Below, one piece after another: positions 9,466-59,487 of a DNA stretch of 64,000 nt. The stretch lies in the sequence record PQ613263. One strand, written 5' to 3'. The notes beneath the pieces are model-generated. The model had not been told where the DNA came from. It saw only the letters and a program-made list of their open reading frames with translations, and searched no databases. Numbering within the stretch: position 1 is the first letter of the stretch; the number at the start of each line of letters is the position of its first letter. The position numbers and the translations under genes are program-made. The DNA is from Shigella phage Moonfish.

Positions 9466-12400
9466 TTGAACAGGAAACATGCTATGTCAACATTTGACCG
9501 TCTGGCAGGTTTCGCAGACAGCATCACTAATGCCAAGCAAGTCGATGTCTCTACTGCAACCTCTCAGAAGCAAGCTGCACAAGGGCAAAGCCCTTTCCAA
9601 TTAACCCCAGAGAATGCTTACAATCTCCAGACTGGACGTGTAGGTAATCTTGGAACTGGTGCATTCGAACCAGGTTCACTTCAGGCTGACTTCACTCAAG
9701 CCTCCCCATTAGAAATCATTAATAAGTACGGTAATGAGAAAGGTTTACAGATTCTTAATAGCCGAGCTAATGCTGCTGATGTTGTACGTCAGGACTTATC
9801 TAAACAGCGTACTAACGCAGAAGCATTTGGCGATACTCTTTCTGGTGTTGGTCTTGGTGTTGCTAATACCCTTGGGGGCATTGCTGCTCTTGGCACAGGT
9901 CTGGTCAATGATAATGCCGGGGCATCCATTGCTTCCGGGATGGATTGGCTGAATGAAGGTGTACGCAATCTCCAGTCTGATGCACTGAATGCTACCCGTA
10001 AAGTTGTTCAGAATCAGAACCAGATTTCTGCTCAAAAGAACCAGAAACTTTACGAGCAAGATATTAAGAATGGGGAGAACGATTTGGTTGCCTCCCTGTC
10101 TCGCATTGGTCGTGACGCTTTTGATTCTGTTGCTAATACACTTGATAATGGTATGGCTGCTACCGATGGACTGAGCGAAGGTGTTGGTTCCCTCTTTACT
10201 GCTGGTCCACTTATCCGTGGTGTGTCTGCATTAGGTAAAGTAATGGTTGGTGGTGATAAAGCTGTTAGGGGTATTACCTTAGCTGCTGAGTTGGGTTCAC
10301 GTCCTGCACAGGTTGCACTGTCTGCTGGTCGCGTTGCTGCACCTGCTATTGCAATCGGTGGCATGGAAGCAGGTGGTGCATACCAACAGACTGCATCTGA
10401 AATCATGAAGATGTCCCACCAAGAATTGGCAAGTAAGTCTCCTGTTTACCAACAACATATTGCTGATGGTTTACCTCCTGATGAAGCACGTCGTCAGACT
10501 GCATCTGAAACAGGTATCACTGCTGCTGGCTTAACTGCTCCAGTTGCTGCTGCTACTGGTCCACTGGTATCTCGCTTTGAACTTAACCCACTTAGAGTAG
10601 GTTCACTGGCTGGTGCTGGTTCTAATATGTTACGTGAGACTGTAGAAGAAGGTATTCAATCCGGCTTTGGTCAGTTCGCACAGAATACTGCAATCAAGGA
10701 AAATGTTGATGCATCCCGTGACACCCTCAAAGGGGTCGGTGAGCAAGCAGGGCTTGGTGCACTCTACGGCTTCGGTAGTGCTGGAGTTGCTCAAGCTCCT
10801 GGTGCAACTGTTAAAGCTGCTGGTGCTGCCACTGCTCCTGTTGTACGTACTACCCTGGCTGGTGCTTCTCTGGTTGGTAATGCATTAGCTAAAGCTGCTT
10901 CCCCTATTACTAACATTCTGGTTCAACGTGGTGAAGAAGTTGCTAAGCGTAATGAACAAGCATCCCCTGTAGCTGATGCTACGGTTAATGCTGCTGCACA
11001 AGAAGCTACTGCTCAGGCAGAACAAGCACAAGCGACTGTACAGGAAGCAGTAGATGCAATGGATATCTCTCCTGAGGAGAAGGCTGCTGCTACTCAGTAT
11101 GCTGCTGACTTAACTCAGGCAATGAACTTTGACCCTGTAGAATTGGAACAAGCTAACCCGGTAATTCGTGAAGCTGTTTCTGGTTCCACTAACCGTGTTG
11201 AAGCTATTCAGAAGATGGCTGACTTGGTTAATACAGCAGAAGACCCTAACGTTCAAATGGAAGCTGCTATCCAGATGTATGACAACATCATGTCTATGGA
11301 TAGCTTCATTAACCGTGACCCAGGTGCACTGGCTAATCTGGAACAGGGTTCACCTGCTGCTACAATCGTAGACCAGTTCTCTGGTCTGATGGCTAACGTA
11401 CAGAATACACCGAAGGTACTTCGTGCATTCCGTGCTATCCATTCCATGATTCAGGAACAGGCTGAAGCAGGTAAGCTGAAAGCTACTGAAGAAGCTAACC
11501 AAGCTCAAGCAAACAACATTGCCATGGCTGCTGACGTGTCTCCAGAAGTATTGGATGCAGATTCAGTGAACATGGTTCTGAAACATGCAAGTGAAGGTAA
11601 GATTACACTGGGGAATCGTCAACGTGCTGCCCTGCAATCTGCTGCTGCCTTGTTACAGGGTGCACGAGAGTTTGACGCTAAAGCAGAAGAACTAGGCTTA
11701 CGTCCTCAAGACATTGTTAGTAAACAAATTAAAACCGACGAGTCTCGTTCTAACGAAGGACAGTACTCTGCGTTGCAACATGCGAAACGCATTCGTTCTG
11801 CGTATAACTCTGGTAACTTCGATTTGGCTTACGCTTATCTGAGCGACTTTATGAAGTTCGCCCAGCACATGCAGAATAAGGTCGGAGCGTTGAATGAGCA
11901 TCTGATTTCTGGGAATGCGGATAAGAATAAGTCTGTTCATTATCAGGCTCTCTCGCCTTCCCGTGAATGGGTACGTAGTCGTACTGGCCTCGGTGTCAAT
12001 CCTTACGATACCAAGTCTGTTAAGTTTGCCCAGCAAGTAGGACTGGAGGCCAAAACCGTAGCTGATATTGCTAACGCACTTGCTACGGCTTACCCGGAGC
12101 TTAATGTTTCTCATGTGAAAGTTACCTCGTTGGATTCACGTCTGAACAAGCCAGCTGCCCAGGTAGTTAAAGAGTTCCGTCAAGGTGGTCTTGATGCCAC
12201 TCAGTCTCAACAGACCAATGAACCAGTGAATCAGGTTGATGAATCTCCTGCACCAGTGCAAGAGGACACTACTACTGTACAGCCTAAAGCTAAACCTGTG
12301 GTAGAAAATAAGACTGCTCCTACTAAGGAGACTAGCCCAAAAACAGAAGAAGTCTCTACTACCAAGTCTGAAACAGTAGAAGCTACCCTCACTAATGAGG

Positions 12401-15400
12401 ATACCATCCAGGAAGTAGCTGAAACCAAAACAGAAATGGAAACAGTGTTCCCCGTCTATAACAATGAAAAGACACCGAACCAGTTCCTGAAAGCATTTAC
12501 CCTACCAGAAGAACCTAAGTCTCGTACCATTGGTTCTGAGTCTCCGTTGACTGATGTTAAGCAAGCACTGTCTTCTGTTGCTCGCTTTGAAGCATTCACT
12601 CAAAAAGAAAATAACGCTCTCACAGGTGATGTGATTAAGCGTTATCAGGACTTAATGGACTTTGGTGAAACTCTGAAGACTACTTTGTCTGAACGACTGG
12701 CTAAGTTCCTTGCTAACAAAAATGTCGGTAAACGTTTTGCAGAAGGTACGGAAGCTAACCGTTGGGTAGGTGGCAAACTACTGAATATCGTTGAACAAGA
12801 TGGTGACACCTTTAAGTTCAATGACCAGTTGTTAGAGACTGCTGTGCTTGCTGGTCTGCAATGGCGACTAACTGCTACACAGAATGCTGCTGTTAAAGAC
12901 ATGAAAGACGTAGCTGCTATTACGGGTGTAGAAGCATCTCTGTTACCAGAAGGTATTCTGGCTGAGTTCGAGAATGCTCAGACTCTGGTTGAAGCTACTA
13001 ACTCACTGGCTCAGAAGATCGAATCCTACTGGGGTTTGAACCGTAACCCTAATGCACCACTGGGTTATACCAAGGGTATCCCAATGGCAATGGCTACAGA
13101 GATTCTGTCTTCCCTCATTGAGATGGGTGAAGTTAAAGAGTCTATGCTGGATGTGTCTGAGATTGACCCAGATTCCAATAAGACTGTCGGCCTGTATACC
13201 ATTGAGAAGCTGGATGACAATGATGCCATTAACAAATTCCCTACTGCTATTGAGGAAGCTGTCCTCTTAGAACCAGAAGAGAAAATGTATTTCGGTGACG
13301 ACATTCCTTCCGTGGCTCAAACTCAATTACGTAATCCTGCTGTTAAGAATACCCCGGAACAGAAAGCTGCTCTGAAAGTAGAACAGGCTACTGAGTTCCG
13401 TGTACACATGCCGATGGTTAACTTCTATGAAGCTATGGGCCGTGACAACATACTGGAATTGATGGGTGCTGGTTCTCTTAATCCTGAACTGTTGAACGTG
13501 AACACTGCTAAGTCACTGGAGGGTAAAAACCTGTCCGTGTCCATGGCATATGATTCCTTGTTTGGTGTAATCAATCAGATTAAGGAACAGGAGAATGGAC
13601 TAGATACACCTATCCACTATGGCTACAACATGACCCGTGTAGGTCGTATGCAGATGCTTGGTAAGAACAACCCACAGTCCAGCAAACTGGTACGTGAAGC
13701 AATCCTGCCAACCTTCTCTACTATTGACTTGAGTAATGAAAACAGCCAAACGTTCTCTGACTTCCAGTTAGGTCTGGCTCAGGCATTGGGTATCAAGGTT
13801 CATAATATGTCCCGTGAAGCTATGTCTGAAAAGCTGACCAAAGCTTTGGAAGGTAATCTGAAACCTGCTGTTGATATGATGGTTGAGTTTGATAAGTCTG
13901 GTCACTTACCTGCTGATGCAGTTGATATTCTGAAGACATCTCTGGGTGGCGATAAATCATTCGTAGCTCTCATGGCTCTTATGGAATATGCCCGTTACCT
14001 GAACAGTGATGACCGTGCCAACTTTAATACCCCTCTGTACGTTGAAGCCGATGGTGTAACCAACGGTCCGATTAACGCAATGGTATTAATGACTGGTGGT
14101 AAGTTCACTCCAGACTGGATTAAGAATACTGCTAAAGGTGGTTTGTTCTTCGGTAAAGCTGGTAAGACTATGAACGAACATCGTTCACAGGATGACAGTG
14201 TTGACTTGTATGAAGCATCCACCAATGGTCTGCAACAAGCATTGGGTGAATTGCGTAGTACTTACCGTAACAACGTTCCTGTTATGAGCCAGATGAACCA
14301 TCTCCAGAAGTTAATGGACCTGTTCATCAAAGACTTTAACTTGAATGAAGACGGTACTTTGGACCTGAAACGTGGTATCGCTAAAAACCCACTGACTATT
14401 ACCATCTATGGTTCTGGTGCACGTGGTATTGCTGGCAAGATGGTTAGTGCAATTACTGACACCATCTATGAACGCTTCAGTGACGTTCTGCAAGCACGTG
14501 CTGCTGACCCTAGCATTTCCCCAGCTATGGCGATGTTTGGTAAGGAGGCTGCGTCTGAGGCTGATGCTCAGGCTATGCTGGATACTTTCCTTACTTCTAT
14601 GGAAGCACTGACTGGTAATGTTCCAGTTATGCGTAAAGGCGAACTGTCTATTCAACAGGCAGAAGGTGCTCTGACTGGTAAGTTAGACCCTCAGAAGTTT
14701 ACTGTATCTGGTAATGCCTTGAAGAACCTACAAGAGAACATGCTTCACTTGTTCGTTGAACCAATGCGTACAGGTATCCGTAATACTGTTGGTGAAGGTC
14801 TGATGCACTCTACTGAGAACTTGCAGAAGGCTACTCAGATTCAGTCTCTGGTATTGCAGGATATGTTCCAACAAGCAGTACAGGCTAAACTGGCAGAAAA
14901 AGAAAATGACCCAACGTGGAAGAAGGGTGATTTCTTAACACAGAAAGAACTGAATGAAATTCAGGAATCATTATCTCCACTGGCTCCAATGATTGAGACT
15001 GGCGCACAGACTTTCTACATTGCTGGCAGTGAGAATACTGATGTTGCTAACCAAGTACTGGCTACCAACTTAGATGACCGTATGCGTGTGCCAATGAGCA
15101 TCTATGCCCCGTCACAAGCAGGTGTTGCTGGTATTCCATTTATGACCATCGGTACTGGTGATGGCATGATGATGCAGACCCTTTCTACTATGAAAGGTGC
15201 TCCGAAGAATACCCTGAAAATCTTTGATGGCATGAACATTGGTATCAATGACATCACTGATGCAAGCCGTAAAGCTAATGAGGCTGTATACACTTCCTGG
15301 CAGGGTAACCCTATCAAGAATGTTTATGACTCCTTCGCTAAGTTCATGAAGAATGTAGACTTCAGTAAACTGTCTGATGAAACCAAACAGGCTATCGCTA

Positions 15401-18400
15401 AGTCTGCTCTGGAATACGACCAGCGTGAAGGTGCTACTGATGACCTGTTACGTGTTGGTGCTGAACAGATTGAACGTAATCTGCGTAACATTGCTCTGGG
15501 TGTAGATATTCGCCATAAAGTAATGAACCAGGTACAGACTACTGTTGACCAGATGGCTGCTGTAGGTGCTCCTTATGTGAACAACGGTAAAATTTCTCTG
15601 GAAGGTCTGACTGTAGACCAGCAAGTAGCTAAGCTGAACGAACTGTTTGATGCTGAATTAATCAAGCGTCGTGATGCAGTACGTGCTGCTAAAGCAGAAC
15701 CAGTGAAAGAAGTACCGGCGATGGAGCAGGTTGGTCGTGTGCTGAAGTCTGGTGTACGTCTGCTGTCTAACACTGCTATTACTAAGCTGGCTAAAGAGAT
15801 GTCTCCTGAACAGCAAGCAGTATTGAAAGAAGTACAGAACTCCCTTGCTGCTAAAGACTACAAGGTTGTTTATGGTACTCCTGCTCAACTGGATGCTTAC
15901 GCTATTGAGAAGAACATTACTCGCCCAGCACCGGAAGATATTGAAGCTGCTGAAGCTGGTAATGCATACGGCTGGACTAACTTTGATGATAAGACCATCT
16001 ACTTAGTTACTCCTTCCTTAGAGACTCTGGTTCATGAATTGGTACATGCTTCTACTTTCGAATCTGTACTGGCTCACTATGAAGGTACTCCTAATGAAGC
16101 AGTCCAGAATATTGAAGACCTGATGAACCAGTTCCGTGCTCTGGATGTTAAGGATGAATCTCCGGCAGTACGTGAAGCATATGCTGATGCTCTCAATACC
16201 ATTAATGGTCACTTGTCTAATGGCTTTATTGAGCCAGCAATGGCTAAAGCTGCTGCACTTAATGAGTACATGGCATGGGGTTTAACCAACCGTGAACTGA
16301 TTGGTAAGCAGAAGAAAACCACTGCACTTAAGGCCATGGTTCAGTCTGTATATGAAGCAATTAAACGTCTGGTATTTGGGCGTAAGAAAGCTCCTGCTAA
16401 TGCAGATGATATGTTCTCTGGCTTACTGTTTAACTCCTCCGTAGTTATGCGTGGGCAAGCTCCTACTGCTGCTGTGGCTAAGGACACTACCTTGTTCCAT
16501 AGCAAAGCATATGGAGATAACACTCGTCTGGAAGAGTTAGGACAGACCTTCGATAAGCTGATTACTAACTACATTGGTTCAGAACCAGTACAGCAAGTAA
16601 TCCGTAAAGGTAAATTCTCTGATGCAGTAGTGAATGCAACAAAAGTAACTCGTGATGTTCAGGCTCATGGTTTCACTATGAATATGCAGGAACAGCGTCT
16701 CTTTACTAACATTGTTGCTGCACTGGCTACTGAAGCTGCTATTAGCCCAGCTGCTCTGGCTCGTGCACAGGAATACTATGCACACGTTACTAAGAACCTG
16801 ACCGTTGAAGCATTCATGGCTGACCCGGAAAGTACTAACCCTGCTGACCGTTACTACGCACAGCAGAAGTTCGATACCATCATGGGTGCTAACAATATTG
16901 AGTTTGATGCACAGGGTCGTTCTTCCTTACTGCCTACCTTCGTGGCTCTGGCAATGGTAAGTGAAGATGTACGTAACGTACTGGCTGGCATTCCTGTTAT
17001 GAAAGCAGATAAGCAATCTGGTAATACTGTTGATGCAATGCTGACTAACATTGGTACTGCTGCAATGGCTAGCCTGAATGCTCGTGTAGCAGGAGACACT
17101 AAAGCTACCAACGTGCAAGAAGGTATGGATGCACTGGCTCAGACAATCATGCAGACTAGCCTCAATGCACAGTCTTTCTACGATTCCGTTGCTACTCCTA
17201 GTGGTAATGCTATTGACCGTGCTAACCAGTATCTGGTGGACTCTATTGATGTACTGTCTACTCGTGCTTTAGATGGTGCACGTAATGTTGCAGCTAATAC
17301 CAAGAACCCATTGGTTAAAGGTGCTGCTCATGCTGCACAACTGGTAGCTGCTATTGCTACGGAGAAGAATGGTGCAATCGTAGCCGAAGGTGTTATGGCT
17401 GCAATGAACCAGGGTAAGGTATGGCAACCCTTCCATGACTTAGTTAATGACTTAACTGGTCGTACTAAGAGCAATGCTTCTGTATACGATTTAATTAAAG
17501 CAGTACGTGCACAGGTACAAGCTGACCGTCAGCAATTCCGTGAACATCTGCCTACCACTATCGCATCTAAGTTCAGCCGTAAGCTGACTAATGATGAGTG
17601 GAAAGCAATGCATACCGGCATGGGTAAAACTGATTTAGCTGTACTGCGTGACACTATGTCACTGGCTGAAATCCGTGACCTGTTGTCTGACCAGAAGATT
17701 GTTGACCGTGAAGTGAACAAGCTGGAAGCAGATTTGCAGAAACAAGCTGGGCGTAACTGGCCACTGATTAACCGTAAATCTAAGCAACTGGCTCAGTACA
17801 TGATTAACGGCACAGTTGGTAATAATCTGCTGCGTAATGCTACTGCAATCTCTCGTATGCTGGGCGAACGTCAGTCTGCACGTTCTACTGTAGATGTAGC
17901 TCAACTGGATAAACTTATTACCCTGTATGCACTGGAAGCAATGAGCAAAGCTGACCGTGAGCTGTTATCTTCCCTGGCTCAATCAGAAGTTGATGGAATG
18001 GATTTTGCTACTTCTTATCTGGTTGGACAGCGTAAAGATGAAATGGCTAAAGCTAAAACTGATAGCCGTGCAACATTGAACCAGTATAAAGGGCATATCC
18101 CTAGCGAGACTAAGCAGGGTGTTAACCTGATTGTTGCTGAAGATAGCCAGTTTGCTGATTTGATTGAGAAATCCTATGTACGTCTGGGTACTTATCAGGG
18201 TAGTTCTGCTAACCGTGGGCCAGCACGTAGCTACTACTTCGCACCAGTACAGGCACAGGCTCCATTCTCACAGGGCATCTTACAGAACGTTCGTAATACT
18301 GCTGGTGGTGTAGATCTTGGTACAGGCTTTACGATGGGTTCTATGGTAGCAGGTCGTATCACAGACAAGCCTTCAGTAGACCGTATCACTAAAGCTCTGG

Positions 18401-19836
18401 CCCGTGGTGAACGCGGTAATGAACCACTGCTGCCTGTATACGATGACAAAGGTAATGTAGTTGCATATGAGCAGTCTATAGACCCTAACATGCTGAAGCA
18501 CATTGAGGGTGAGAACCATCTTGCACGTGCAATCGGTGTATGGCGTGGTCGTCAGGTGGAAGAAGCTAAGGCTCAGCGTTTTAATGACATGCTGATAGAG
18601 AACCTGCATAGCATGTATGAGAACGACATTAAGATGTCTGCCTCCAATAAGTCCCAGTACGTGAACCTTCTTGGTTCTAAACTGGACCCAGTAACTGCTG
18701 ATGCTCTTAAGCTGATGAACAGTGAGACACGTCAGAAAGCAGAAAGCCTGTTTGGTAATGGTGAACTGTGGGTACGTCGTGACATGCTTAATGATGCTCT
18801 TGGTTATCGTGCAGCTTCTGTAGGTGATGCCTGGTCTGGTAATTCTCGTTGGTCCCCAGAAACGCTGGATACCTTCAAGAAAGCTATGTTAGGTGTGTTC
18901 GGCAATCGTGCTTATAAGTACACAATGGGAGGTGAGAACCTGGTACAGAACTTAGTTAAAGAAGCTAAGACCCTGATTGTAATTAAGTCAGTAGTCGTAC
19001 CTGCTGTTAACTTCTTGGCTAACCTTTACCAGATGGTTGCTCGTGGTGTACCAGTTAAGAACATTGCTAAGAGCATTCCACAGAAAACTGCTGAGATTAA
19101 CCAGTACCTGAAATCTCGTCTGCGTCAGGTAGATGCAGAAGCAGAATTACGTGCAGCTACCAACCCGAACCAGATTCGTAAGCTTAAGGCTGAGATTCAA
19201 TCCATCTCTGATAGCCATAAGCGTATGAGTATCTGGCCTCTGCTGGAAGCTGGTGAGTTCTCTTCAATTGCAGATGCTGGTATTGGGCGTGATGACATCC
19301 TGATTACCGAAGGTAAACTTCAGGAATATATGGATAAACTGGCTGATAAGTTGCCTAAGTCTGTACGTACTGCTGGGCGGTATGCACTCATCACTAAGGA
19401 TACTGCTCTTTTCCAGGGTATCCAGAAAACCGTTGAGTACTCTGACTTTATCGCTAAAGCAATCATCTATGATGAATTGACTCAGCGTAAAGGCAAGACT
19501 CGTGAAGAAGCACTTGGACGTGTAACTGAAGAGTTTGTTAACTATGACCGTCTGCCTGGTCGCTTCCGTGGATATATGGAAAGCGTTGGTTTAATGTGGT
19601 TCTACAACTTTAAGATTCGTTCTGCAAAAGTTGCAGTATCCATGATTCGTAATAACCCAGTACATGCAGCAATGGCTATGTTGGCTCCAGCTCCTACCAT
19701 GTTTGGTAACGTTGGTCTGCCTATTCAGGACAACGTATTTAGTATTGCTGCTAAGGGTGGGCTGGATTCTTCTTGGGGCTTTGGTCAGGGGCTGCGTGCT
19801 CACAACCTGAACCCTTGGTTGAACCTGGTAAACTAA
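9466..19836 (+). CDS. virion-encapsidated giant RNA polymerase (vRNAP, N4 gp50-like)
   Basis: Single uninterrupted 3456-aa ORF (10.4 kb) at the end of the virion gene module; a protein of this size in this position is the hallmark of N4-like phages. All antisense ORFs inside it are short. Confidence 0.9.
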   Translation: MNRKHAMSTFDRLAGFADSITNAKQVDVSTATSQKQAAQGQSPFQLTPENAYNLQTGRVGNLGTGAFEPGSLQADFTQASPLEIINKYGNEKGLQILNSRANAADVVRQDLSKQRTNAEAFGDTLSGVGLGVANTLGGIAALGTGLVNDNAGASIASGMDWLNEGVRNLQSDALNATRKVVQNQNQISAQKNQKLYEQDIKNGENDLVASLSRIGRDAFDSVANTLDNGMAATDGLSEGVGSLFTAGPLIRGVSALGKVMVGGDKAVRGITLAAELGSRPAQVALSAGRVAAPAIAIGGMEAGGAYQQTASEIMKMSHQELASKSPVYQQHIADGLPPDEARRQTASETGITAAGLTAPVAAATGPLVSRFELNPLRVGSLAGAGSNMLRETVEEGIQSGFGQFAQNTAIKENVDASRDTLKGVGEQAGLGALYGFGSAGVAQAPGATVKAAGAATAPVVRTTLAGASLVGNALAKAASPITNILVQRGEEVAKRNEQASPVADATVNAAAQEATAQAEQAQATVQEAVDAMDISPEEKAAATQYAADLTQAMNFDPVELEQANPVIREAVSGSTNRVEAIQKMADLVNTAEDPNVQMEAAIQMYDNIMSMDSFINRDPGALANLEQGSPAATIVDQFSGLMANVQNTPKVLRAFRAIHSMIQEQAEAGKLKATEEANQAQANNIAMAADVSPEVLDADSVNMVLKHASEGKITLGNRQRAALQSAAALLQGAREFDAKAEELGLRPQDIVSKQIKTDESRSNEGQYSALQHAKRIRSAYNSGNFDLAYAYLSDFMKFAQHMQNKVGALNEHLISGNADKNKSVHYQALSPSREWVRSRTGLGVNPYDTKSVKFAQQVGLEAKTVADIANALATAYPELNVSHVKVTSLDSRLNKPAAQVVKEFRQGGLDATQSQQTNEPVNQVDESPAPVQEDTTTVQPKAKPVVENKTAPTKETSPKTEEVSTTKSETVEATLTNEDTIQEVAETKTEMETVFPVYNNEKTPNQFLKAFTLPEEPKSRTIGSESPLTDVKQALSSVARFEAFTQKENNALTGDVIKRYQDLMDFGETLKTTLSERLAKFLANKNVGKRFAEGTEANRWVGGKLLNIVEQDGDTFKFNDQLLETAVLAGLQWRLTATQNAAVKDMKDVAAITGVEASLLPEGILAEFENAQTLVEATNSLAQKIESYWGLNRNPNAPLGYTKGIPMAMATEILSSLIEMGEVKESMLDVSEIDPDSNKTVGLYTIEKLDDNDAINKFPTAIEEAVLLEPEEKMYFGDDIPSVAQTQLRNPAVKNTPEQKAALKVEQATEFRVHMPMVNFYEAMGRDNILELMGAGSLNPELLNVNTAKSLEGKNLSVSMAYDSLFGVINQIKEQENGLDTPIHYGYNMTRVGRMQMLGKNNPQSSKLVREAILPTFSTIDLSNENSQTFSDFQLGLAQALGIKVHNMSREAMSEKLTKALEGNLKPAVDMMVEFDKSGHLPADAVDILKTSLGGDKSFVALMALMEYARYLNSDDRANFNTPLYVEADGVTNGPINAMVLMTGGKFTPDWIKNTAKGGLFFGKAGKTMNEHRSQDDSVDLYEASTNGLQQALGELRSTYRNNVPVMSQMNHLQKLMDLFIKDFNLNEDGTLDLKRGIAKNPLTITIYGSGARGIAGKMVSAITDTIYERFSDVLQARAADPSISPAMAMFGKEAASEADAQAMLDTFLTSMEALTGNVPVMRKGELSIQQAEGALTGKLDPQKFTVSGNALKNLQENMLHLFVEPMRTGIRNTVGEGLMHSTENLQKATQIQSLVLQDMFQQAVQAKLAEKENDPTWKKGDFLTQKELNEIQESLSPLAPMIETGAQTFYIAGSENTDVANQVLATNLDDRMRVPMSIYAPSQAGVAGIPFMTIGTGDGMMMQTLSTMKGAPKNTLKIFDGMNIGINDITDASRKANEAVYTSWQGNPIKNVYDSFAKFMKNVDFSKLSDETKQAIAKSALEYDQREGATDDLLRVGAEQIERNLRNIALGVDIRHKVMNQVQTTVDQMAAVGAPYVNNGKISLEGLTVDQQVAKLNELFDAELIKRRDAVRAAKAEPVKEVPAMEQVGRVLKSGVRLLSNTAITKLAKEMSPEQQAVLKEVQNSLAAKDYKVVYGTPAQLDAYAIEKNITRPAPEDIEAAEAGNAYGWTNFDDKTIYLVTPSLETLVHELVHASTFESVLAHYEGTPNEAVQNIEDLMNQFRALDVKDESPAVREAYADALNTINGHLSNGFIEPAMAKAAALNEYMAWGLTNRELIGKQKKTTALKAMVQSVYEAIKRLVFGRKKAPANADDMFSGLLFNSSVVMRGQAPTAAVAKDTTLFHSKAYGDNTRLEELGQTFDKLITNYIGSEPVQQVIRKGKFSDAVVNATKVTRDVQAHGFTMNMQEQRLFTNIVAALATEAAISPAALARAQEYYAHVTKNLTVEAFMADPESTNPADRYYAQQKFDTIMGANNIEFDAQGRSSLLPTFVALAMVSEDVRNVLAGIPVMKADKQSGNTVDAMLTNIGTAAMASLNARVAGDTKATNVQEGMDALAQTIMQTSLNAQSFYDSVATPSGNAIDRANQYLVDSIDVLSTRALDGARNVAANTKNPLVKGAAHAAQLVAAIATEKNGAIVAEGVMAAMNQGKVWQPFHDLVNDLTGRTKSNASVYDLIKAVRAQVQADRQQFREHLPTTIASKFSRKLTNDEWKAMHTGMGKTDLAVLRDTMSLAEIRDLLSDQKIVDREVNKLEADLQKQAGRNWPLINRKSKQLAQYMINGTVGNNLLRNATAISRMLGERQSARSTVDVAQLDKLITLYALEAMSKADRELLSSLAQSEVDGMDFATSYLVGQRKDEMAKAKTDSRATLNQYKGHIPSETKQGVNLIVAEDSQFADLIEKSYVRLGTYQGSSANRGPARSYYFAPVQAQAPFSQGILQNVRNTAGGVDLGTGFTMGSMVAGRITDKPSVDRITKALARGERGNEPLLPVYDDKGNVVAYEQSIDPNMLKHIEGENHLARAIGVWRGRQVEEAKAQRFNDMLIENLHSMYENDIKMSASNKSQYVNLLGSKLDPVTADALKLMNSETRQKAESLFGNGELWVRRDMLNDALGYRAASVGDAWSGNSRWSPETLDTFKKAMLGVFGNRAYKYTMGGENLVQNLVKEAKTLIVIKSVVVPAVNFLANLYQMVARGVPVKNIAKSIPQKTAEINQYLKSRLRQVDAEAELRAATNPNQIRKLKAEIQSISDSHKRMSIWPLLEAGEFSSIADAGIGRDDILITEGKLQEYMDKLADKLPKSVRTAGRYALITKDTALFQGIQKTVEYSDFIAKAIIYDELTQRKGKTREEALGRVTEEFVNYDRLPGRFRGYMESVGLMWFYNFKIRSAKVAVSMIRNNPVHAAMAMLAPAPTMFGNVGLPIQDNVFSIAAKGGLDSSWGFGQGLRAHNLNPWLNLVN

Positions 19837-42903: not shown

Positions 42904-43410
42904 TTATTTACTGCTTCTCGCAGCTACTGGTTTGTTTTCCTGGTTATTGTACTTGCCTGTGTATGTGGCAGGTTCTTGAACCAGATGAAATAATACTTGA
43001 GCTATCCCGGAACCAGCCGGGATATGTAATTTCTTACGTCCGTGATAGACCAGTTCAAGGGTAAGATACCCTTTCCATCCTGGTTCAATCACGGTATTGA
43101 ACACTGATAATGCACGTCTTGCCCATGTAGACTTATCGTGAACGATTGCTACACAGGATGGGGACATGTTGAACTTCTCAATGGCTGAAGCCAATGCGAA
43201 CTTACCGAGATGGTGTGATACCTGTTTTCCATCAATGATTTTCACCATTGGAATCAACCCAAATAAGCGATAGAAGGTAATATCTTGTTTGATACGAATA
43301 TCATAACCAGCTTCACCCAACCCATAGCTTACACCATGCTCGGATACCTTACGGTCTGGGACATCCAGTAATTGAGAGGAACGATATAGGGAATTACCGT
43401 TAACAACCAT
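42904..43410 (-). CDS. dCTP deaminase / dUTPase-superfamily enzyme
   Basis: 168 aa; IEPGWKGYLTLELVYHG...IPAGSGIAQVLF matches the Dcd/dUTPase beta-jellyroll signature. Confidence 0.6.
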   Translation of the reverse strand: MVVNGNSLYRSSQLLDVPDRKVSEHGVSYGLGEAGYDIRIKQDITFYRLFGLIPMVKIIDGKQVSHHLGKFALASAIEKFNMSPSCVAIVHDKSTWARRALSVFNTVIEPGWKGYLTLELVYHGRKKLHIPAGSGIAQVLFHLVQEPATYTGKYNNQENKPVAARSSK

Positions 43411-44585
43411 TATTTCATTCCTTTAGGGATATGAACTACCTCCCCAAAAGGTACGGTAGCACTAGGATTATTCAGAACACACCATATGATAGGGATATCA
43501 AATGGTAATTCCTCCATTGGATGAACATACATATCGGAGAATATGATTGCAGCGGTTGGCTTATTCTTAATAATCCAATCCCGTACTGGCACAAGACTTG
43601 TACCACCACGGCCCGTAATCTTAATCTCTTCAAAAGTATCTTCTTCAGTGATGTCTATTTCTTCTTGGATAATATCGTCGAAGGTAATTAAGGACATCTT
43701 CTTAGGATTGAACTGGCTCTTAACGTAGGCAACCTCAGAGTTAAAACGCAGAGAGTCAGCACTACTAATAGAACCAGATACATCCTCAAAGTAAGCTAAG
43801 TGTCGTAAGCGTCCTTCATCATCTTCCAGGGATGGTAGATAGATGTCAGTGAAACGACGGTTAGGTCTGGCCCACGTATAACGTGAGTCATCAATGTCAG
43901 TGAAGAAATCCATCAAGACTTCCTGCCATGGAACTACTGGCTTAAGGAATTGGGTAATAACCTCTTCCATATGACCAGCACCCTTACCAGGCATTGTTCC
44001 ACCAGCCATCTTCTGGCTTTGCATCGCACGTACTACGTTGTTGACAACAGCACCCTGGGACTGCCCCGGAGTGGGAGCTTTCATGTCGCCAGCAAGACCT
44101 GCTCCAGCACCCCCTGACGGCTGCTGCCTTTTCTGAGGGTTCTTCATCAGGTCATCGTAGATGTCTTCTTCAACCCATCCTTTGTATTGAGGGTCTTTGC
44201 AAATACCTTCGTCGATACCAGTGAACTTGTAACCATCTTCCTCTAACTGAAGATTAATGAAGTGGTCACATGCCTGGTTCCAGACTTCTGGGTCACGGCT
44301 TCCACATCGGATGCCATGCAGATATGCCACATGCCAGAGTTCGTGCATTAATACGGTTTCTCTGGCATCTGGACACATCCAGACAAAGAAATCGGGATTG
44401 AAATGGAGTTCTATCCCATCAGTACATGCAGTGGGACAATCCTCACGTCTCCATGAGAATTTAAGGCTACACAGCAATGAACCAAAAAACGCTGCGCTGC
44501 GTCCAAGAAATGCGTTGGCTTGTATTCTATCGTACTCCCTCATTAACTGTTCATCAGTGAGGGTATGTGAAGGTATGTTATTCAT
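43410..44585 (-). CDS. VWA-domain protein with N-terminal HExxH metallopeptidase-like domain (MoxR partner)
   Basis: 391 aa; HELWH zinc-binding-like motif; MIDAS-like D-x-S-G-S (EDVSGSIS). Confidence 0.55.
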   Translation of the reverse strand: MNNIPSHTLTDEQLMREYDRIQANAFLGRSAAFFGSLLCSLKFSWRREDCPTACTDGIELHFNPDFFVWMCPDARETVLMHELWHVAYLHGIRCGSRDPEVWNQACDHFINLQLEEDGYKFTGIDEGICKDPQYKGWVEEDIYDDLMKNPQKRQQPSGGAGAGLAGDMKAPTPGQSQGAVVNNVVRAMQSQKMAGGTMPGKGAGHMEEVITQFLKPVVPWQEVLMDFFTDIDDSRYTWARPNRRFTDIYLPSLEDDEGRLRHLAYFEDVSGSISSADSLRFNSEVAYVKSQFNPKKMSLITFDDIIQEEIDITEEDTFEEIKITGRGGTSLVPVRDWIIKNKPTAAIIFSDMYVHPMEELPFDIPIIWCVLNNPSATVPFGEVVHIPKGMK

Positions 44586-45036: not shown

Positions 45037-46089
45037 TTATCCGTGAATGTAACGAGAGATATTGGCAGCAGCCTTACGCCATTCAGGGGTAGCCTGAATT
45101 TCTGGTAATGCTCTACCTACTGTACGGAAGTACAGAATCTTATGAGTGAACGTTTTAAAGCGTTCAATGTACTGAAGAACATCAGCGAAGTTTTCTTCAG
45201 TAGTTTTGTTAGCCAGATGGTTAACGGTAGCCCAACACAGGTTGTTATCTTCCGGTAGTGCACAGCCCATAGGGTCTTTGACTACTTTCTCAATCGTAAT
45301 CATACGATTGTATACCTGAGTGAACTGAACAAATTCTGTAGCCTTACCAGCAGTAACGTGGCCTGCATAATAGATAGAATCTTCATCAGGCAGAGCACCT
45401 TCTGGTCGGTTCTTGAGGTCTTTATTAACAAAGTCCCAGGTACGAGGGCAACAGAATGTTTTGTTCTTGTGGGCAGGATCGAAGTCATGCAGATAACCAG
45501 GGTTAGCATGTAAGAATGCAACCAGACGCTCGTCCCATTCCTGTGGAATCATTACGTCTTCAACAAAGATGTCGAAGTTAAGTTCCATTTCGAAGTGGAC
45601 AACTCGAGACTGCATTGCAGTACCTAGTGGGTTAACAATGGCACGGTCAGTAGCTTTGTTACCAGCACAGACAATCATCACATTAGGGTGAAGTTTTTTC
45701 TGACCAGTCATGCGGTCAAGAATTAGTTTGTATGCAGCAGCTACTACTTCTTTCTTAGCTGAGTTGAACTCATCAAGGAACAGGAGCCATCCATTGTAAC
45801 CTTCAGGGATTTCATCCCCTTCAATTGGGAACAAGTCAGCGAATGGAATAAACTCTGCACGGTCACCATTACGGAATGGTAGACCTGATAGGTCTTCTGG
45901 GGCAGAAGTAGACAGACGATGGTCAATCAGCTTCATACCAAATTCATCTGCAACAGAACGAATAATTGCAGATTTACCCATGCCTGGTGATGAAGTCAGG
46001 AACGGTACGTTACCTGCTTGTAAGGCACGGATAATAAAGTTACGGGCTTGACGTGTGTTACATACAGTCAAGGAGTCAATGCTTGCCAT
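45037..46089 (-). CDS. MoxR-like AAA+ ATPase
   Basis: 350 aa; Walker A SPGMGKS, Walker B LLFLDEFN. Confidence 0.7.
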   Translation of the reverse strand: MASIDSLTVCNTRQARNFIIRALQAGNVPFLTSSPGMGKSAIIRSVADEFGMKLIDHRLSTSAPEDLSGLPFRNGDRAEFIPFADLFPIEGDEIPEGYNGWLLFLDEFNSAKKEVVAAAYKLILDRMTGQKKLHPNVMIVCAGNKATDRAIVNPLGTAMQSRVVHFEMELNFDIFVEDVMIPQEWDERLVAFLHANPGYLHDFDPAHKNKTFCCPRTWDFVNKDLKNRPEGALPDEDSIYYAGHVTAGKATEFVQFTQVYNRMITIEKVVKDPMGCALPEDNNLCWATVNHLANKTTEENFADVLQYIERFKTFTHKILYFRTVGRALPEIQATPEWRKAAANISRYIHG

Positions 46090-51450: not shown

Positions 51451-51465
51451 AGCTGCGGAGCAGCT
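51451..51465 (-). promoter_or_regulatory. conserved GGA-triloop hairpin, candidate vRNAP-type early promoter
   Basis: AGCTGC-GGA-GCAGCT (6-bp stem, 3-nt loop) ~40 nt upstream of the RNAP II small-subunit start; identical 17-mer recurs at 54508-54524. Confidence 0.45.
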
Positions 51466-54508: not shown

Positions 54509-54523
54509 AGCTGCGGAGCAGCT
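54509..54523 (-). promoter_or_regulatory. conserved GGA-triloop hairpin, candidate vRNAP-type early promoter
   Basis: AGCTGC-GGA-GCAGCT, identical to the element at 51451-51465 including one flanking A on each side. Confidence 0.45.
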
Positions 54524-54731: not shown

Positions 54732-54785
54732 TTTATTACTCCAGTAGTTATAGGGATACCCAATAGAAGCGGAGCTTCTTGGTTT

Positions 54786-55232: not shown

Positions 55233-55553
55233 CTATTTAGTCAGGATGTCGATTACTTTTGAATATTCTGCGTTATAGATACGAGCGTTCTCTGAATCTT
55301 TGCAGAATTCTTCGATACTTTTCTTACGCATAGTCTCGTTCATAGCTGTTTCTTCAGCTAATTTGTTTACGAATGTATGCATTTCTAATTTAGTACGGAT
55401 GGCTTGTTTCTCTGCCATAGTAGATACATATGAATTAAGCATACCTACTGCTTTAGTAGCTGTGCCGAATGTATCTGCAACAGTAGTAGCAGCTGAGTTA
55501 ACAGTACCCAGTAAAGTTCCTGCGGTCATACGTACAGTAGCGGTAGTAGTCAT
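55233..55553 (-). CDS. hypothetical early protein
   Basis: 106-aa ORF downstream of the hairpin at 55596-55610. Confidence 0.5.
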   Translation of the reverse strand: MTTTATVRMTAGTLLGTVNSAATTVADTFGTATKAVGMLNSYVSTMAEKQAIRTKLEMHTFVNKLAEETAMNETMRKKSIEEFCKDSENARIYNAEYSKVIDILTK

Positions 55554-55595: not shown

Positions 55596-55610
55596 ACATG
55601 CGGAGCATGT
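55596..55610 (-). promoter_or_regulatory. GGA-triloop hairpin, candidate vRNAP-type early promoter
   Basis: ACATGC-GGA-GCATGT (6-bp stem, 3-nt loop, same C-GGA-G core) ~45 nt upstream of the 55553 start. Confidence 0.45.
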
Positions 55611-55820: not shown

Positions 55821-56147
55821 TCACTTATAAGCAGCTAAATAGGAGGGAGCATACACCAGGAATATGGATTGAAGGGTATCGCTCGATGTGAAGGTAAGGG
55901 TGTACTTATCAGTGTTCACATGCCAGGGGGAATGTACATATGTAGACCAGGGTAATTCCTTTCCTGGTTCCTGAAGTTTTACAATAACTTTCCTGCCTAG
56001 TATTAGAGCCAGACCTTTCACTTCATGAAGGGTTTGCTCATCTGGTACTAGGATAATAGGAGTGAGTCTACCTGGTTCGAGGTCTTGTAAGGTTGTATGG
56101 GCAGTGGGATTGGGTCCACCAGCATAACCTATCTTAGTGAGTTTCAT
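55821..56147 (-). CDS. small early protein, member of paralogous family (ILVPDEQ..HE..GL motif)
   Basis: 108 aa; core IILVPDEQTLHEVKGLALILG shared with 56848, 57456, 57736, 58336 ORFs. Confidence 0.5.
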   Translation of the reverse strand: MKLTKIGYAGGPNPTAHTTLQDLEPGRLTPIILVPDEQTLHEVKGLALILGRKVIVKLQEPGKELPWSTYVHSPWHVNTDKYTLTFTSSDTLQSIFLVYAPSYLAAYK

Positions 56148-56150
56148 TTG

Positions 56151-56528
56151 TTATACCCCGTAATCTATCTTAACCAGTCTACCTTTGTAGTAACCAAAGT
56201 TCTTAGGGAAGGCATCATACTCAAAGAACTCTTTACCGAGTGGCTGTGGTTCATTGGCTGCATCTAAGTATAGCTTCTCTAACTCTACCCAGAATAAACC
56301 AGTATGTTTCACAGGCTTAGCCCTGTGCATGATTAGAACCAGACCAAATCTATTAGAGTACTTGATTGGGCATAGGAACTTATTGTTGTAATCCTTCCAC
56401 TGTCCTTCAGTTAGATTGCTTAACATACCTTGTACGAAGTGTTTCCATGTAGAGAGGATAGGGAACTTAATTGCGTAATGACGAGTGAGTATTACCCATC
56501 TGGTTCCACCGGAGCGTATTAGTTTCAT
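56151..56528 (-). CDS. hypothetical early protein with kinase-like Gly-loop/AIK and C-terminal DYG motifs (speculative)
   Basis: 125 aa; SGGTRWVILTRHYAIKFP ... HRAKP ... KIDYGV. Confidence 0.45.
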   Translation of the reverse strand: MKLIRSGGTRWVILTRHYAIKFPILSTWKHFVQGMLSNLTEGQWKDYNNKFLCPIKYSNRFGLVLIMHRAKPVKHTGLFWVELEKLYLDAANEPQPLGKEFFEYDAFPKNFGYYKGRLVKIDYGV

Positions 56529-56851
56529 TTGGTAGCCTTGAATTGTGGTAACTGATTAAGAAGACTATCCATGTAGTAGCAGTATGCCTCGGAGGATTCG
56601 TCATTAATTGGAAGACCAATGAATCCAAAGGTATAAATGCAGAAGTGATTAAGCTCATGAACCAAGGTTATCTTACTATCATCAAATATACCCATAAGCA
56701 CAAAGTTGTCCGCTATGTAGCAGGTTTTTCCTTTAAGGGTTGTTTCCTTTTCTGGTTCAGTACCACGGTATGCTTTATGCTTCTTAGAGAATGTAGCCCA
56801 GTCATATACTACTTCTAACTGTACTGGATAGGGGGATGTGTTTAGTTTCAT
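56525..56851 (-). CDS. small HExxH-motif protein (mini-zincin candidate)
   Basis: 108 aa; VHELNHF followed by acidic ESSEAY. Confidence 0.45.
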   Translation of the reverse strand: MKLNTSPYPVQLEVVYDWATFSKKHKAYRGTEPEKETTLKGKTCYIADNFVLMGIFDDSKITLVHELNHFCIYTFGFIGLPINDESSEAYCYYMDSLLNQLPQFKATK

Positions 56852-57132
56852 TGTCTTTCCTTATAGATTAGGGTGTTATCCTCGAAGGATAGAATGTACT
56901 TGTCTGTATTGAGATACCAAGGACTGAAGCTCCCCTGCCAGGACATAGGTGCACTTGGTTCAAGTAGATGTACTTCTGCTTTCTTATTGTATAAGAAAAG
57001 TAATCCTTGTAGTTCATACAAGGACTGTTCGTCTGGAACCAGGATAAGTATATCAGCATCCATGCGAGCTACTTCTTTATGGTGGGAGCAAACATTTCCG
57101 AATTCTCCTGAATAATTTTTATAGATAACCAT
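56848..57132 (-). CDS. small early protein, paralogous family member
   Basis: 94 aa; ILILVPDEQSLYELQGLLFLY ... SPWYLNTDKYILSF parallels the 55821 ORF. Confidence 0.5.
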   Translation of the reverse strand: MVIYKNYSGEFGNVCSHHKEVARMDADILILVPDEQSLYELQGLLFLYNKKAEVHLLEPSAPMSWQGSFSPWYLNTDKYILSFEDNTLIYKERQ

Positions 57133-57452
57133 TAGCAGCTCCCGTCGCTAGATAAATATGAGGTAGAAGGATAGAGGGTAATGAGTCTACCAGTAAGAGT
57201 AGTAGCTACCATAGGTTCGCTGGAGGAGTAGATGTATACCCTCTTACCTTCTGGTATCTCAATAGAGGTATCTATCTTAACAAAGTTAATAGGTACACCT
57301 AACATTAGACAAGAACCAATGAACTCATCTGCTTCCTCACTGGGTTCATAATAGACAGTGACACCATCCAGTTTACCTTCGAAGAAATCCCTCTTAGTTA
57401 GACCAGGCCATCTAATGTTAGAACTGTATGCAGCTAATGTGTAGAAGTGCAT
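57132..57452 (-). CDS. hypothetical early protein (possibly distant member of same family)
   Basis: 106-aa ORF. Confidence 0.45.
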   Translation of the reverse strand: MHFYTLAAYSSNIRWPGLTKRDFFEGKLDGVTVYYEPSEEADEFIGSCLMLGVPINFVKIDTSIEIPEGKRVYIYSSSEPMVATTLTGRLITLYPSTSYLSSDGSC

Positions 57453-57455
57453 AGC

Positions 57456-57770
57456 TTACTTCCTTACATAGTAATAACGGTATTCGTCATTCTCATAACG
57501 ACTAACCCATTGGTAGTCATCAGACACCAACATATATGGGATAGGGTCACCTGCACTGTAGTCGGTATAGACAGAAGGAGGAACAATGCATACAACCTTA
57601 CGGGCATTACCTGCTAAGAAGAGTTGACCCCTTACTTCGTGATAATCTTCTAAAGTAGGAACCAGGATTACTTGGTGAGGATTACTGTTCATGACTTCTT
57701 CTAAAGTGAAGTCAGTTGTGTACAGTAACTTCTCTTTAGTAAAACTGAGGACGGTCATTATGAATTTCAT
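57456..57770 (-). CDS. small early protein, paralogous family member
   Basis: 104 aa; VILVPTLEDYHEVRGQLFLAG. Confidence 0.5.
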   Translation of the reverse strand: MKFIMTVLSFTKEKLLYTTDFTLEEVMNSNPHQVILVPTLEDYHEVRGQLFLAGNARKVVCIVPPSVYTDYSAGDPIPYMLVSDDYQWVSRYENDEYRYYYVRK

Positions 57771-58134
57771 GATGGATTCTCCTTCCTTTGGGAAGAGGTC
57801 TGAAGTAAATGGAAAGTGTTTTATTAAATACGTTATGGTCAGCTATCAATTCCCAACCATCAATCTTATAGAAGCGTACACCGGGAAAGAATGTAGTGAA
57901 GTCACTATACTTAGTGAGGTCATACACCCTTGGTTCAGTAAGTATCTCGGTATTGAGTTGCAGGTTGGATAAGAAAAAAGAACCAATAACTTCATGGGAC
58001 TCTTCACAATCAGGTAAGAAGACTTGCTGCCATGGAGCAATGAACTTACTTACTGCTTCTGGTTCTCCTAAGAGATAAGGCTCCTGCCCTCGTAGTACTC
58101 CGGTAATATCAAAATCAAAACAGTAGATGCTCAT
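57736..58134 (-). CDS. small early protein, paralogous family member
   Basis: 132 aa; VFLPDCEESHEVIGSFFLSN; GGAGG RBS. Confidence 0.5.
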   Translation of the reverse strand: MSIYCFDFDITGVLRGQEPYLLGEPEAVSKFIAPWQQVFLPDCEESHEVIGSFFLSNLQLNTEILTEPRVYDLTKYSDFTTFFPGVRFYKIDGWELIADHNVFNKTLSIYFRPLPKGRRIHHEIHNDRPQFY

Positions 58135-58160
58135 AATTGCATACCTCCAGAAAAAGAAAT

Positions 58161-58186
58161 GGGGTAGAGCCTCTCGACTCTACCCC
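58161..58186 (-). terminator. hairpin plus T-run (terminator/attenuator) in early region
   Basis: GGGGTAGAG...CTCTACCCC 9-bp stem followed on the minus strand by ATTTCTTTTT, immediately before the RBS of the 58134 gene. Confidence 0.5.
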
Positions 58187-58242
58187 TTACCGTTTTCAAT
58201 CACGGGTCAGTTCATCCCCCTAGGTACTTATGTACCATTAGA

Positions 58243-58255
58243 CCTACGGAGTAGG
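58243..58255 (-). promoter_or_regulatory. GGA-triloop hairpin (fourth copy of the C-GGA-G hairpin class)
   Basis: CCTAC-GGA-GTAGG 5-bp stem, 3-nt loop. Confidence 0.35.
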
Positions 58256-58335
58256 AAAGGAGCCGGGGAACCCTGACTGTAGAAGTTATTAACTCTTTAC
58301 GAGTACCGCCACTGTCTACTAGGCGGTATGACTAA

Positions 58336-58626
58336 TCACATCATCTCCGTCATCCGAACGCTATCTTTGCTTCGTTTGATGGAGACACTATGAGGTAATT
58401 TTGTGAAGAACACAATAGCAGAAATAGCTTTTTCTAAAGAGTAACTTTTTGCAGGTTCTTTGACGGTAACCCCTGAAACGTTTTCAAGGAGGAGTATACC
58501 GGACAACTCGTGGTATTCCTGCTCGGTCGTGGTAATGATGATATCTCCTGGCAGGAACCCAGCCTTCTTGTGGTCAAGTTCTACATATCCGTCAAAGGTA
58601 TCATCGCTTTTGGTAAATAGTCTCAA
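58336..58626 (-). CDS. small early protein, paralogous family member (TTG start)
   Basis: 96 aa; IIITTTEQEYHELSGILLLEN; AGGAG RBS 9 nt upstream of a TTG start. Confidence 0.45.
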   Translation of the reverse strand: MRLFTKSDDTFDGYVELDHKKAGFLPGDIIITTTEQEYHELSGILLLENVSGVTVKEPAKSYSLEKAISAIVFFTKLPHSVSIKRSKDSVRMTEMM

Positions 58627-58797: not shown

Positions 58798-59487
58798 ATG
58801 AGTGAGCTAACTAAGCAGCAGATCATTAATGCCTTACCTGCTAACTTCAAAAACAGTGTGACCCAGGAGTTAGTAGATACAATTAACAACATAACCCAAG
58901 ACCAACTGGTTGCTGAGTCCTTCCGTGAAAACTTCATCTCTTACTCTGGTGTTATGAAAGAGGGTAAGTTTAAGACACAGGACTACATGAATGCAGTTCA
59001 GTATGTGACTTACAAGCACATGGGCTACTCAAATAAAGAAGCCTACTTTAAAACATTCCCCAACCGACAAGCAGAACTTGTAGCACGGGGAACCAGTGAG
59101 AAAGATATTAGTGCTTATGTATCTGCTTATCACAGGGGTAAGTTAGTTAACCTCATCATGGAACAAAGTTTGGTTCCAGTGTGGATTGTGAACCAGGACA
59201 ATTATCAGAAGGCAATCAATGTTCAGGTTGAACTGATGACTACAGCAGCAAGTGAGAAAGTAAGATGTGATGCAGCTAACTCTATCCTTACTCACTTAGC
59301 TAAACCAAAAGACCAGGTGACTAATATCAACCTGGACTTGAGGGAGAACTCTGGGTTGACTGACCTCAAGGCAACACTTGCTGCATTAGCTGAACAACAA
59401 ATTAATGCAATCAATAGTGGTGTACCTACTAAAGAGATTGCTGGTTCTAAACTAGTACGTGCAGATGAGGACATTACAGATGTCTGA
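58798..59487 (+). CDS. first gene of late operon; terminase small-subunit candidate (positional)
   Basis: 229-aa ORF immediately upstream of and overlapping the terminase large-subunit gene. Confidence 0.4.
   Translation: MSELTKQQIINALPANFKNSVTQELVDTINNITQDQLVAESFRENFISYSGVMKEGKFKTQDYMNAVQYVTYKHMGYSNKEAYFKTFPNRQAELVARGTSEKDISAYVSAYHRGKLVNLIMEQSLVPVWIVNQDNYQKAINVQVELMTTAASEKVRCDAANSILTHLAKPKDQVTNINLDLRENSGLTDLKATLAALAEQQINAINSGVPTKEIAGSKLVRADEDITDV

Follow-up and report, generated by a model that had tools for sequence, protein, structure and literature searches.

The 64,000-nucleotide stretch of Shigella phage Moonfish DNA analyzed here (sequence record PQ613263; this whole stretch is called the window below) encodes on its minus strand a protein of 108 amino acids (aa) carrying an HExxH motif, which was found to belong to PHROG 1365, a large family of small phage proteins listed as being of unknown function. 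That PHROG 1365 is a conserved, enzyme-like family is well supported, and moderately surprising. On balance, the protein is probably a stand-alone zinc hydrolase of Glu-zincin-like type, an endopeptidase being the most probable kind. It would be cytoplasmic and act on a specific protein; we infer its metal binding, its catalysis, the peptide nature of its substrate and its cellular role.

Conservation and predicted fold of the HExxH protein

The protein (MKLNTSPYPVQLEVVYDWATFSKKHKAYRGTEPEKETTLKGKTCYIADNFVLMGIFDDSKITLVHELNHFCIYTFGFIGLPINDESSEAYCYYMDSLLNQLPQFKATK) shows no hydrophobic segment and is therefore presumably cytoplasmic. The preliminary description of this DNA had reported the same open reading frame (ORF), with the same residues; its strand, which had not been given, is the minus strand. 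The segments VHELNHF and ESSEAY singled out at that time correspond to residues 64-70 and 85-90, respectively, with HELNH at 65-69, and the distance of about 25 residues given between them is approximately right, since E88 lies 23 residues after H65, with 18 residues intervening after H69. The features of the gene are as follows:

56525..56851, minus strand: ORF of the HExxH protein with an ATG start (108 aa, 12.5 kDa, isoelectric point 5.9; PHROG 1365 member)
56858..56862, minus strand: ribosome-binding site AAGGA, 7-11 nt 5' of the ATG, read from the sequence
56848-56851, minus strand: ATGA overlap between the ATG of the HExxH gene and the stop codon of the upstream paralog, read from the sequence
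56525..56528, minus strand: ATGA overlap between the stop codon of the HExxH gene and the start of the downstream 125-aa kinase-like gene, suggesting translational coupling
56645..56659, minus strand: codons of H65-E66-L-N-H69, with H65 and H69 as putative zinc ligands and E66 as putative general base, in predicted helix 60-78 (conservation and model)
56576..56590, minus strand: codons of E88-A-Y-C-Y92 (E-x3-Y) at the start of predicted helix 87-98, with E88 as putative third metal ligand (conservation and model)
56687..56731, minus strand: codons of residues 41-55, a predicted beta-hairpin (strands 41-47 and 50-55) beginning at the near-invariant G41 (model and family profile)

Both ATGA overlaps are arranged as in what would be a translationally coupled operon.

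The protein matched PHROG 1365 significantly and over its full length (E 4.1e-26; residues 1-105 on profile positions 6-116 of 127). A search of 5.8 billion proteins yielded 103 close homologues, all at least 53% identical and apparently Gamaleyavirus-like where the source was indicated, in which every source-named protein was labelled "hypothetical protein". Two of these copies are truncated or frameshifted (P0102, 70 aa, and P0103, 91 aa, which diverges directly after "HE"), which suggests that some Gamaleyavirus genomes can do without it. When 1.84 billion cluster representatives were searched with a profile, 552 clusters (50% identity) were found at E <= 1e-3, consisting mostly of proteins of 100-130 aa, and a second homologue search with the deep alignment added few further proteins. 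Among annotated phages, tblastn detected members in Schitoviridae (Gamaleyavirus, KP8, and Possum), in the Jersey-like phiEap-2, in Vi1-like Ackermannviridae (157 kb), in Pseudomonas, Serratia, and Achromobacter podophages, in one Enterococcus phage, and in P22-like phages (epsilon34 gp70, ST64T Orf-129, and HkcC of P22 and HK620), nearly always annotated "hypothetical protein". HkcC of P22 and HK620, epsilon34 gp70, Possum gp098, KpS110 gp113, and phiEap-2 gp50 were all assigned to PHROG 1365. Prophage copies are present in 131 of 5,426 complete E. coli genomes, where the PGAP label is again "hypothetical protein"; a plasmid-borne homologue was sought and none was found.

The annotation of the hkcC locus is inconsistent between records. 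In P22virB-3 (OQ031658.1 13861-14226; L012 2501-2866), no coding sequence is given and only promoter and terminator features lie over the locus; the ORF is annotated in HK620 and in Phi75, the sieA coding sequence of Phi75 being long enough to overlap hkcC on the opposite strand. In one Klebsiella phage record, the HExxH homologue goes under the name "tail length tape measure protein", and in another record the small genes of the left end are called "DNA primase | exonuclease" (OY978778.1, OY979416.1); both labels look like annotation-transfer errors.

In the alignment of the query with 148 cluster representatives, which are 19-60% identical to it, exactly four columns are invariant: H65, E66, H69, and E88. 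Y92 (149/150), G41 (142/150), and Y8 (137/150) are nearly so. The HExxH motif followed by E-x3-[Y/F] was found in all 155 distant members; in 143 of them, exactly 18 residues stand between the second His and this Glu (range 15-19). The family signature can therefore be written HExxH-x18-E-x3-[Y/F], plus an N-terminal P-Y-P, and the translated proteins of P22/HK620, epsilon34, Possum, and KpS110 carry the HExxH-x18-E-x3-[Y/F] part as well. A loss of HExxH in homologues, which the preliminary description had named as grounds for giving up the metalloprotease, was looked for, and all 155 members proved to have the motif. Catalysis is argued for most strongly by the invariance of E66, since this residue would not bind the metal but serve as the general base.

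In the whole window, the stop-free stretches of 60 aa or more add up to 39,246 residues, in which HExxH occurs only three times; the two other occurrences fall in known HExxH domains:

9466-19836, plus strand: ORF of the 3456-aa virion RNA polymerase (vRNAP), with HExxH (HELVH) near 16033, at the place of the HExxH of the N4 vRNAP C1 subdomain
43410-44585 and 45037-46089, minus strand: DUF2201_N putative metallopeptidase/VWA protein (HExxH) and a nearby AAA ATPase gene, with one small ORF between them

The C1 subdomain of the N4 vRNAP is known to carry this motif (PMC13434306). Since there are only three occurrences in the window, and since HExxH and the downstream Glu are kept in all 155 distant homologues, the motif of the 108-aa protein is beyond chance.

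The first AlphaFold2 model, based on 42 close homologues, reached a predicted local distance difference test score (pLDDT) of 86, and the second one, based on the 149-sequence alignment, a pLDDT of 95.3 and a predicted template-modeling score of 0.87. The second model consists of strand 11-15, helix 18-29, strands 41-47 and 50-55, helix 60-78 carrying HExxH, and helix 87-98, which is opened by the invariant E88, 19 residues after H69 and the putative third ligand, with Y92 one turn later. As modeled, this would be the order expected of a minimal zincin, with a backing helix, a sheet whose edge strand comes directly before the active-site helix, and a "glutamate helix". One feature of the Glu-type zincins of clan MA, a conserved HExxH on an alpha-helix, was found here (155/155; predicted helix 60-78). 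Structure comparison by Foldseek did not confirm a zincin fold (best E 0.83), although the model is compatible with a divergent zincin.

The conserved positions and the model suggest how such an enzyme might work. A zinc ion would be held by H65 and H69, which share a helix, and by E88, which opens the following one; E66 would activate the zinc-bound water, and Y92, one helical turn past E88, and possibly Y8 would help to position or stabilize the transition state, while the beta-hairpin beginning at G41 would supply the edge strand binding the peptide substrate. The substrate would be a specific protein in the infected cell, be it a host, a defence or a phage protein, and the gene would be a freely exchangeable accessory gene with no dedicated partner gene.

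Remote similarities were found below the thresholds. In the Pfam scans, 16 of the 149 members touched SprT-like (best E 0.0028) and 7 of the 149 touched DUF4344, a "putative metallopeptidase", and single members touched astacin, M4, M10, M76, and M50B. Single-sequence and profile searches of the PDB sequences likewise returned sub-threshold matches only, those of the family profile being with BMP1/tolloid astacins (E 0.036-0.05), M35, myroilysin, M3B, Spartan, and the N4 vRNAP C1 subdomain. The astacin alignment covers 40 profile columns and places G41 and strand 41-47 on the substrate-binding edge strand, strand 50-55 on the next one, and the HExxH helix on the active-site helix. These weak matches all point the same way.

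Several results weigh against a Glu-zincin-like peptidase. The Pfam, NCBIfam, and PADLOC scans of the protein, the family consensus, and the 149 members gave nothing at threshold. When compared by hhalign with 120 enterobacterial SprT sequences, the family aligned over 14 columns around HExxH only, with a probability of 35%, this being a weak test since the SprT alignment is shallow (all the sequences are at least 75% identical); in a profile comparison with E. coli SprT alone, only the motif aligned. In the model, as read from the DSSP string, E88 stands at the very start of its helix and H69 stands 9 residues before the end of its own, which obliges the 8-residue loop to double back along the helix. 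For the minimal zincins known so far, no activity has been demonstrated (PMC3890501). The epsilon34 genome paper gives P22 hkcC as a gene of unknown function (PMC2629481), and in the literature searched on HkcC, PHROG 1365, phage HExxH anti-defence proteins, and accessory-gene screens, no characterized member was found.

Genomic context and timing of expression

Between positions 55500 and 58500, the window is 83-88% identical to N4-like coliphages (Gamaleyavirus, G7C/Bp4 group, Schitoviridae) over 52-68% of the length. The terminase genes, which are on the plus strand, begin at 58798, and a run of small minus-strand genes begins at 58626; this run corresponds to the left end of an N4-type genome, and the window to a circularly permuted representation of it. 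The HExxH gene had been described as embedded in an array of paralogs, and this array was recovered: six ORFs between 55821 and 58626 share the core ILVPDEQxxHEVxG...EP, and the HExxH gene and the 125-aa gene sit between paralogs 1 and 2.

55821-58626, minus strand: paralog array of six divergent ORFs of 94-132 aa with the core ILVPDEQxxHEVxG...EP...D.Y (sequence comparison)
56151-56528, minus strand: 125-aa ORF, PHROG 4301, coupled to the HExxH gene, with the kinase-like motifs YAIKFP, DAFPKNFG, and KIDYG

Two of the paralogs belong to PHROG 16338 and the others to PHROGs 12099, 11661, 9160, and 7213, all of unknown function. The relatives of the 125-aa protein are 27-76% identical to it and occur in T4-like, jumbo, and other phages; it is annotated as a Ser/Thr kinase in two records (Kosakonia Kc263 and Erwinia AH04), and its sole Pfam match is a weak one to DUF3440 (E 0.0014). 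As a kinase-like protein, it would be unusually small. It was considered as a functional partner of the HExxH protein and rejected, since it occurs alone in T4-like and jumbo phages and is absent beside the KP8 homologue: it is an independent mobile gene.

The positions of the homologues were compared at about a dozen individual loci, including the following:

Possum: between terS and terL
epsilon34: after the lysis cassette
P22, HK620, and Phi75: between gene 16/sieA and orf59a/mnt, on the late-gene strand
phiEap-2: between the DNA polymerase and helicase genes
KpS110: after the SbcCD-like nuclease genes
T7-like contig: adjoining an integrase gene
P22-like contig: in an unannotated block of small genes, downstream of DnaB helicase/RecA-dependent nuclease genes and upstream of ClpP and lysozyme genes

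Further loci were sought in viral contigs with three single representatives of the family, and none came up. No neighbour gene is shared among the loci compared, and the search for domain fusions in the longest members showed low-complexity tails only. Since the positions vary and there is neither a common neighbour nor a fusion, the gene can be taken to be an autonomous, exchangeable accessory gene.

This behaviour is compatible with a host or defence target, and the preliminary description had proposed an early-expressed effector which cleaves a host factor or an anti-phage defence protein. We regard this as possible but doubtful. In its favour, the gene lies about 2 kb from the left end of the genome, on the early-gene strand and among small accessory ORFs, other members occupy accessory or moron-type positions beside sieA (the P22 immI region) or beside an integrase (the T7-like element), and the distribution among relatives looks patchy, with the frameshifted copies P0102 and P0103. 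The promoters found argue against it. The early promoters of the N4-type vRNAP consist of a hairpin with a GC-rich heptamer and a loop of the form 5'G...3'A (PMC4496689), and four hairpins in the window match this published description:

55596-55610, 54765-54779, 54509-54523, and 51451-51465, plus strand (template): four perfect hairpins with a 6-bp stem, a GGA loop, and the heptamer GCGGAGC

The heptamer occurs at only these four places on the plus strand of the 64-kb window and nowhere on the other strand. Relative to the transcription of the HExxH gene, all four hairpins lie downstream of it, so the gene does not have the position downstream of a hairpin promoter that an N4-type early, vRNAP-transcribed gene would have. 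The first hairpin (55596), with its ATGTCCATA leader, is also conserved in Bp4 and KP8, where it again lies directly downstream of the homologue. The sole upstream hairpin with a GGA loop (58243) lacks the heptamer; its loop reads TAG in Bp4, and a strong terminator comes after it. Moreover, early expression is no trait of the family, since the Possum homologue lies between terS and terL and that of P22/HK620 after gene 16 on the late-gene strand. The word "early" had been drawn from position alone; with the four promoters all downstream and homologues elsewhere in late or replication modules, it is not supported. The lack of a PADLOC match and of a characterized member in the literature, mentioned above, also counts against an anti-defence effector.

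The eight minus-strand ORFs at 55821-58626, between the left end of the genome and the first GCGGAGC promoter, have no assigned promoter. The first two genes of the left end are separated by some 190 nt of non-coding sequence (58135-58335, transcribed strand minus), which is 95% identical to Bp4 and conserved far beyond the flanking genes. Its RNA folds better than 200 of 200 shuffled sequences (z = -3.6), with an 11-bp GC-rich terminator and a U-run at the end, and it matched nothing in Rfam or among tRNA/tmRNA. It could represent a small RNA of the phage or a regulatory leader.

Alternative functions

Two alternatives concern the chemistry and not the target of the protein. It might be a metal-dependent HExxH hydrolase other than a peptidase, such as a small YbeY-type nuclease or RNA-processing enzyme, an amidase with a substrate other than protein, or a member of another HExxH class. 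We hold this to be unlikely.

To the same small degree, the protein might bind metal and be catalytically silent, acting stoichiometrically by binding or inhibiting a protein of the host or the phage, or being a "zymogen-like" mini-zincin that inhibits itself. Peptidase activity has gone undetected in the mini-Glu-zincin, the Acel_2062 mini-zincin is unproven as an enzyme (PMC3890501), such a very small protein leaves little room for a substrate cleft, and many phage accessory proteins are known to be stoichiometric inhibitors. However, the invariance of E66 in 155 of 155 members, at identities going down to about 20%, is hard to explain without catalysis, and Y92 and G41 are nearly invariant too.

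As for a chance HExxH in a spurious or non-functional ORF, the motif is short and small phage ORFs are often over-called, but this explanation is refuted by the conservation (full-length homologues in more than 100 phage records and 552 clusters, with four catalytic-type residues invariant), and the pLDDT of 95, the ribosome-binding site, and the coupled start and stop codons also speak against it.

Significance and comparison with known zincins

If the Glu-zincin-like protein is active, it would be among the smallest self-sufficient metalloproteases known, and its carriers are many unrelated phages of the clinically important hosts E. coli, Salmonella, and Klebsiella. To our knowledge, little has been documented on the use of proteolysis by phages for counter-defence or host take-over, and a one-gene protease of about 110 residues with a specific target would therefore, if true, be a new tool and possibly a new mechanism. 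A probable enzymatic class for a PHROG with hundreds of clusters would improve phage annotation even if the target turned out to be mundane. The hkcC genes of P22 and HK620 have been listed as "unknown" for two decades, and since the family includes P22 hkcC, the question is directly testable by P22 genetics. It is also possible, but doubtful, that PHROG 1365, including P22 HkcC, is a previously unrecognized phage-specific family of the smallest autonomous zinc endopeptidases, with its own HExxH-x18-E-x3-Y site and a fold variant having no close solved neighbour, which would serve in Enterobacteria and beyond as portable single-gene weapons; what they cut would be a conserved protein of the bacterium, for instance a regulator or a sensor or effector of immunity.

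Zincin-type metalloenzymes are known, and PHROG 1365 is neither described nor annotated as one in the libraries and literature searched; nor does it have a significant neighbour among the solved structures. Each of the described families with which it might be confused was considered and set aside. The mini-zincin family (Acel_2062/DUF1025) is defined by HExxHxxGxxD and PF06262 (PMC3890501); the protein has HELNHFCIYTF instead, the family has neither Gly nor Asp in the columns +3 and +6 from the second His, and there is no Pfam match. As regards the minigluzincins (M95, proabylysin), no similarity to 4JIU/4JIX was detected in sequence or structure. SprT-like (PF10263) gave a best member E of 0.0028, with 13-17 bits where shown vs. 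a cut-off of 25.6, and the protein has neither a conserved third His nor a Cys-rich tail. ImmA/IrrE (M78, PF06114; CapP 7t5t) showed no Pfam match, and no helix-turn-helix gene is adjacent. The family column statistics also set aside the peptide deformylases (the spacing is wrong and a Cys ligand is not conserved), YbeY (H-x3-H-x5-H is absent), and the metzincins and aspzincins (no conserved Gly, His or Asp following HExxH). The term mini-zincin used in the preliminary description therefore does not apply in the sense of the named family, and the comparison it proposed with minigluzincins, SprT, and ImmA/IrrE revealed no detectable relationship. Its gluzincin-like metalloprotease is borne out as regards the invariant HExxH, E66, and E88 and the order of the elements in the model, which is that of a minimal gluzincin, but not as regards membership of a named family. 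On paper, the protein would be Glu-zincin-like, but it belongs to no zincin family described so far.

With the mini-zincins (Acel_2062/DUF1025, provisionally M94), it would share a minimal zincin-like domain of about 110-130 aa, and in these proteins a tyrosine has been proposed to stabilize the active site (PMC3890501); however, the Acel_2062 type is Asp-zincin-like, whereas the 108-aa protein has FCIYTF after HExxH. It resembles the minigluzincins (proabylysin/projannalysin, provisionally MEROPS M95, 4JIU) in being a soluble single domain of about 105-110 residues with HExxH and a Glu, the putative third ligand in the 108-aa protein, on the following helix, and in the predicted order of strand, backing helix, strands, active-site helix, and Glu helix (PMC3890501, together with general knowledge). 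The SprT-like, Spartan, and Wss1 proteases have a catalytic module of similar size, SprT-like was the most frequent weak Pfam match, and Spartan was among the profile matches in the PDB; in SprT, however, the third ligand is a His followed by a zinc ribbon, neither of which is present in the 108-aa protein. In thermolysin, the distance between H146 and E166 is close to the 19 residues separating H69 from E88, although the thermolysin-type gluzincins (M4, M3, M13) are large multi-domain proteins whose Glu helix carries E-x3-D, whereas PHROG 1365 has a Tyr or Phe at +4 and the whole protein of the present phage consists of 108 aa.
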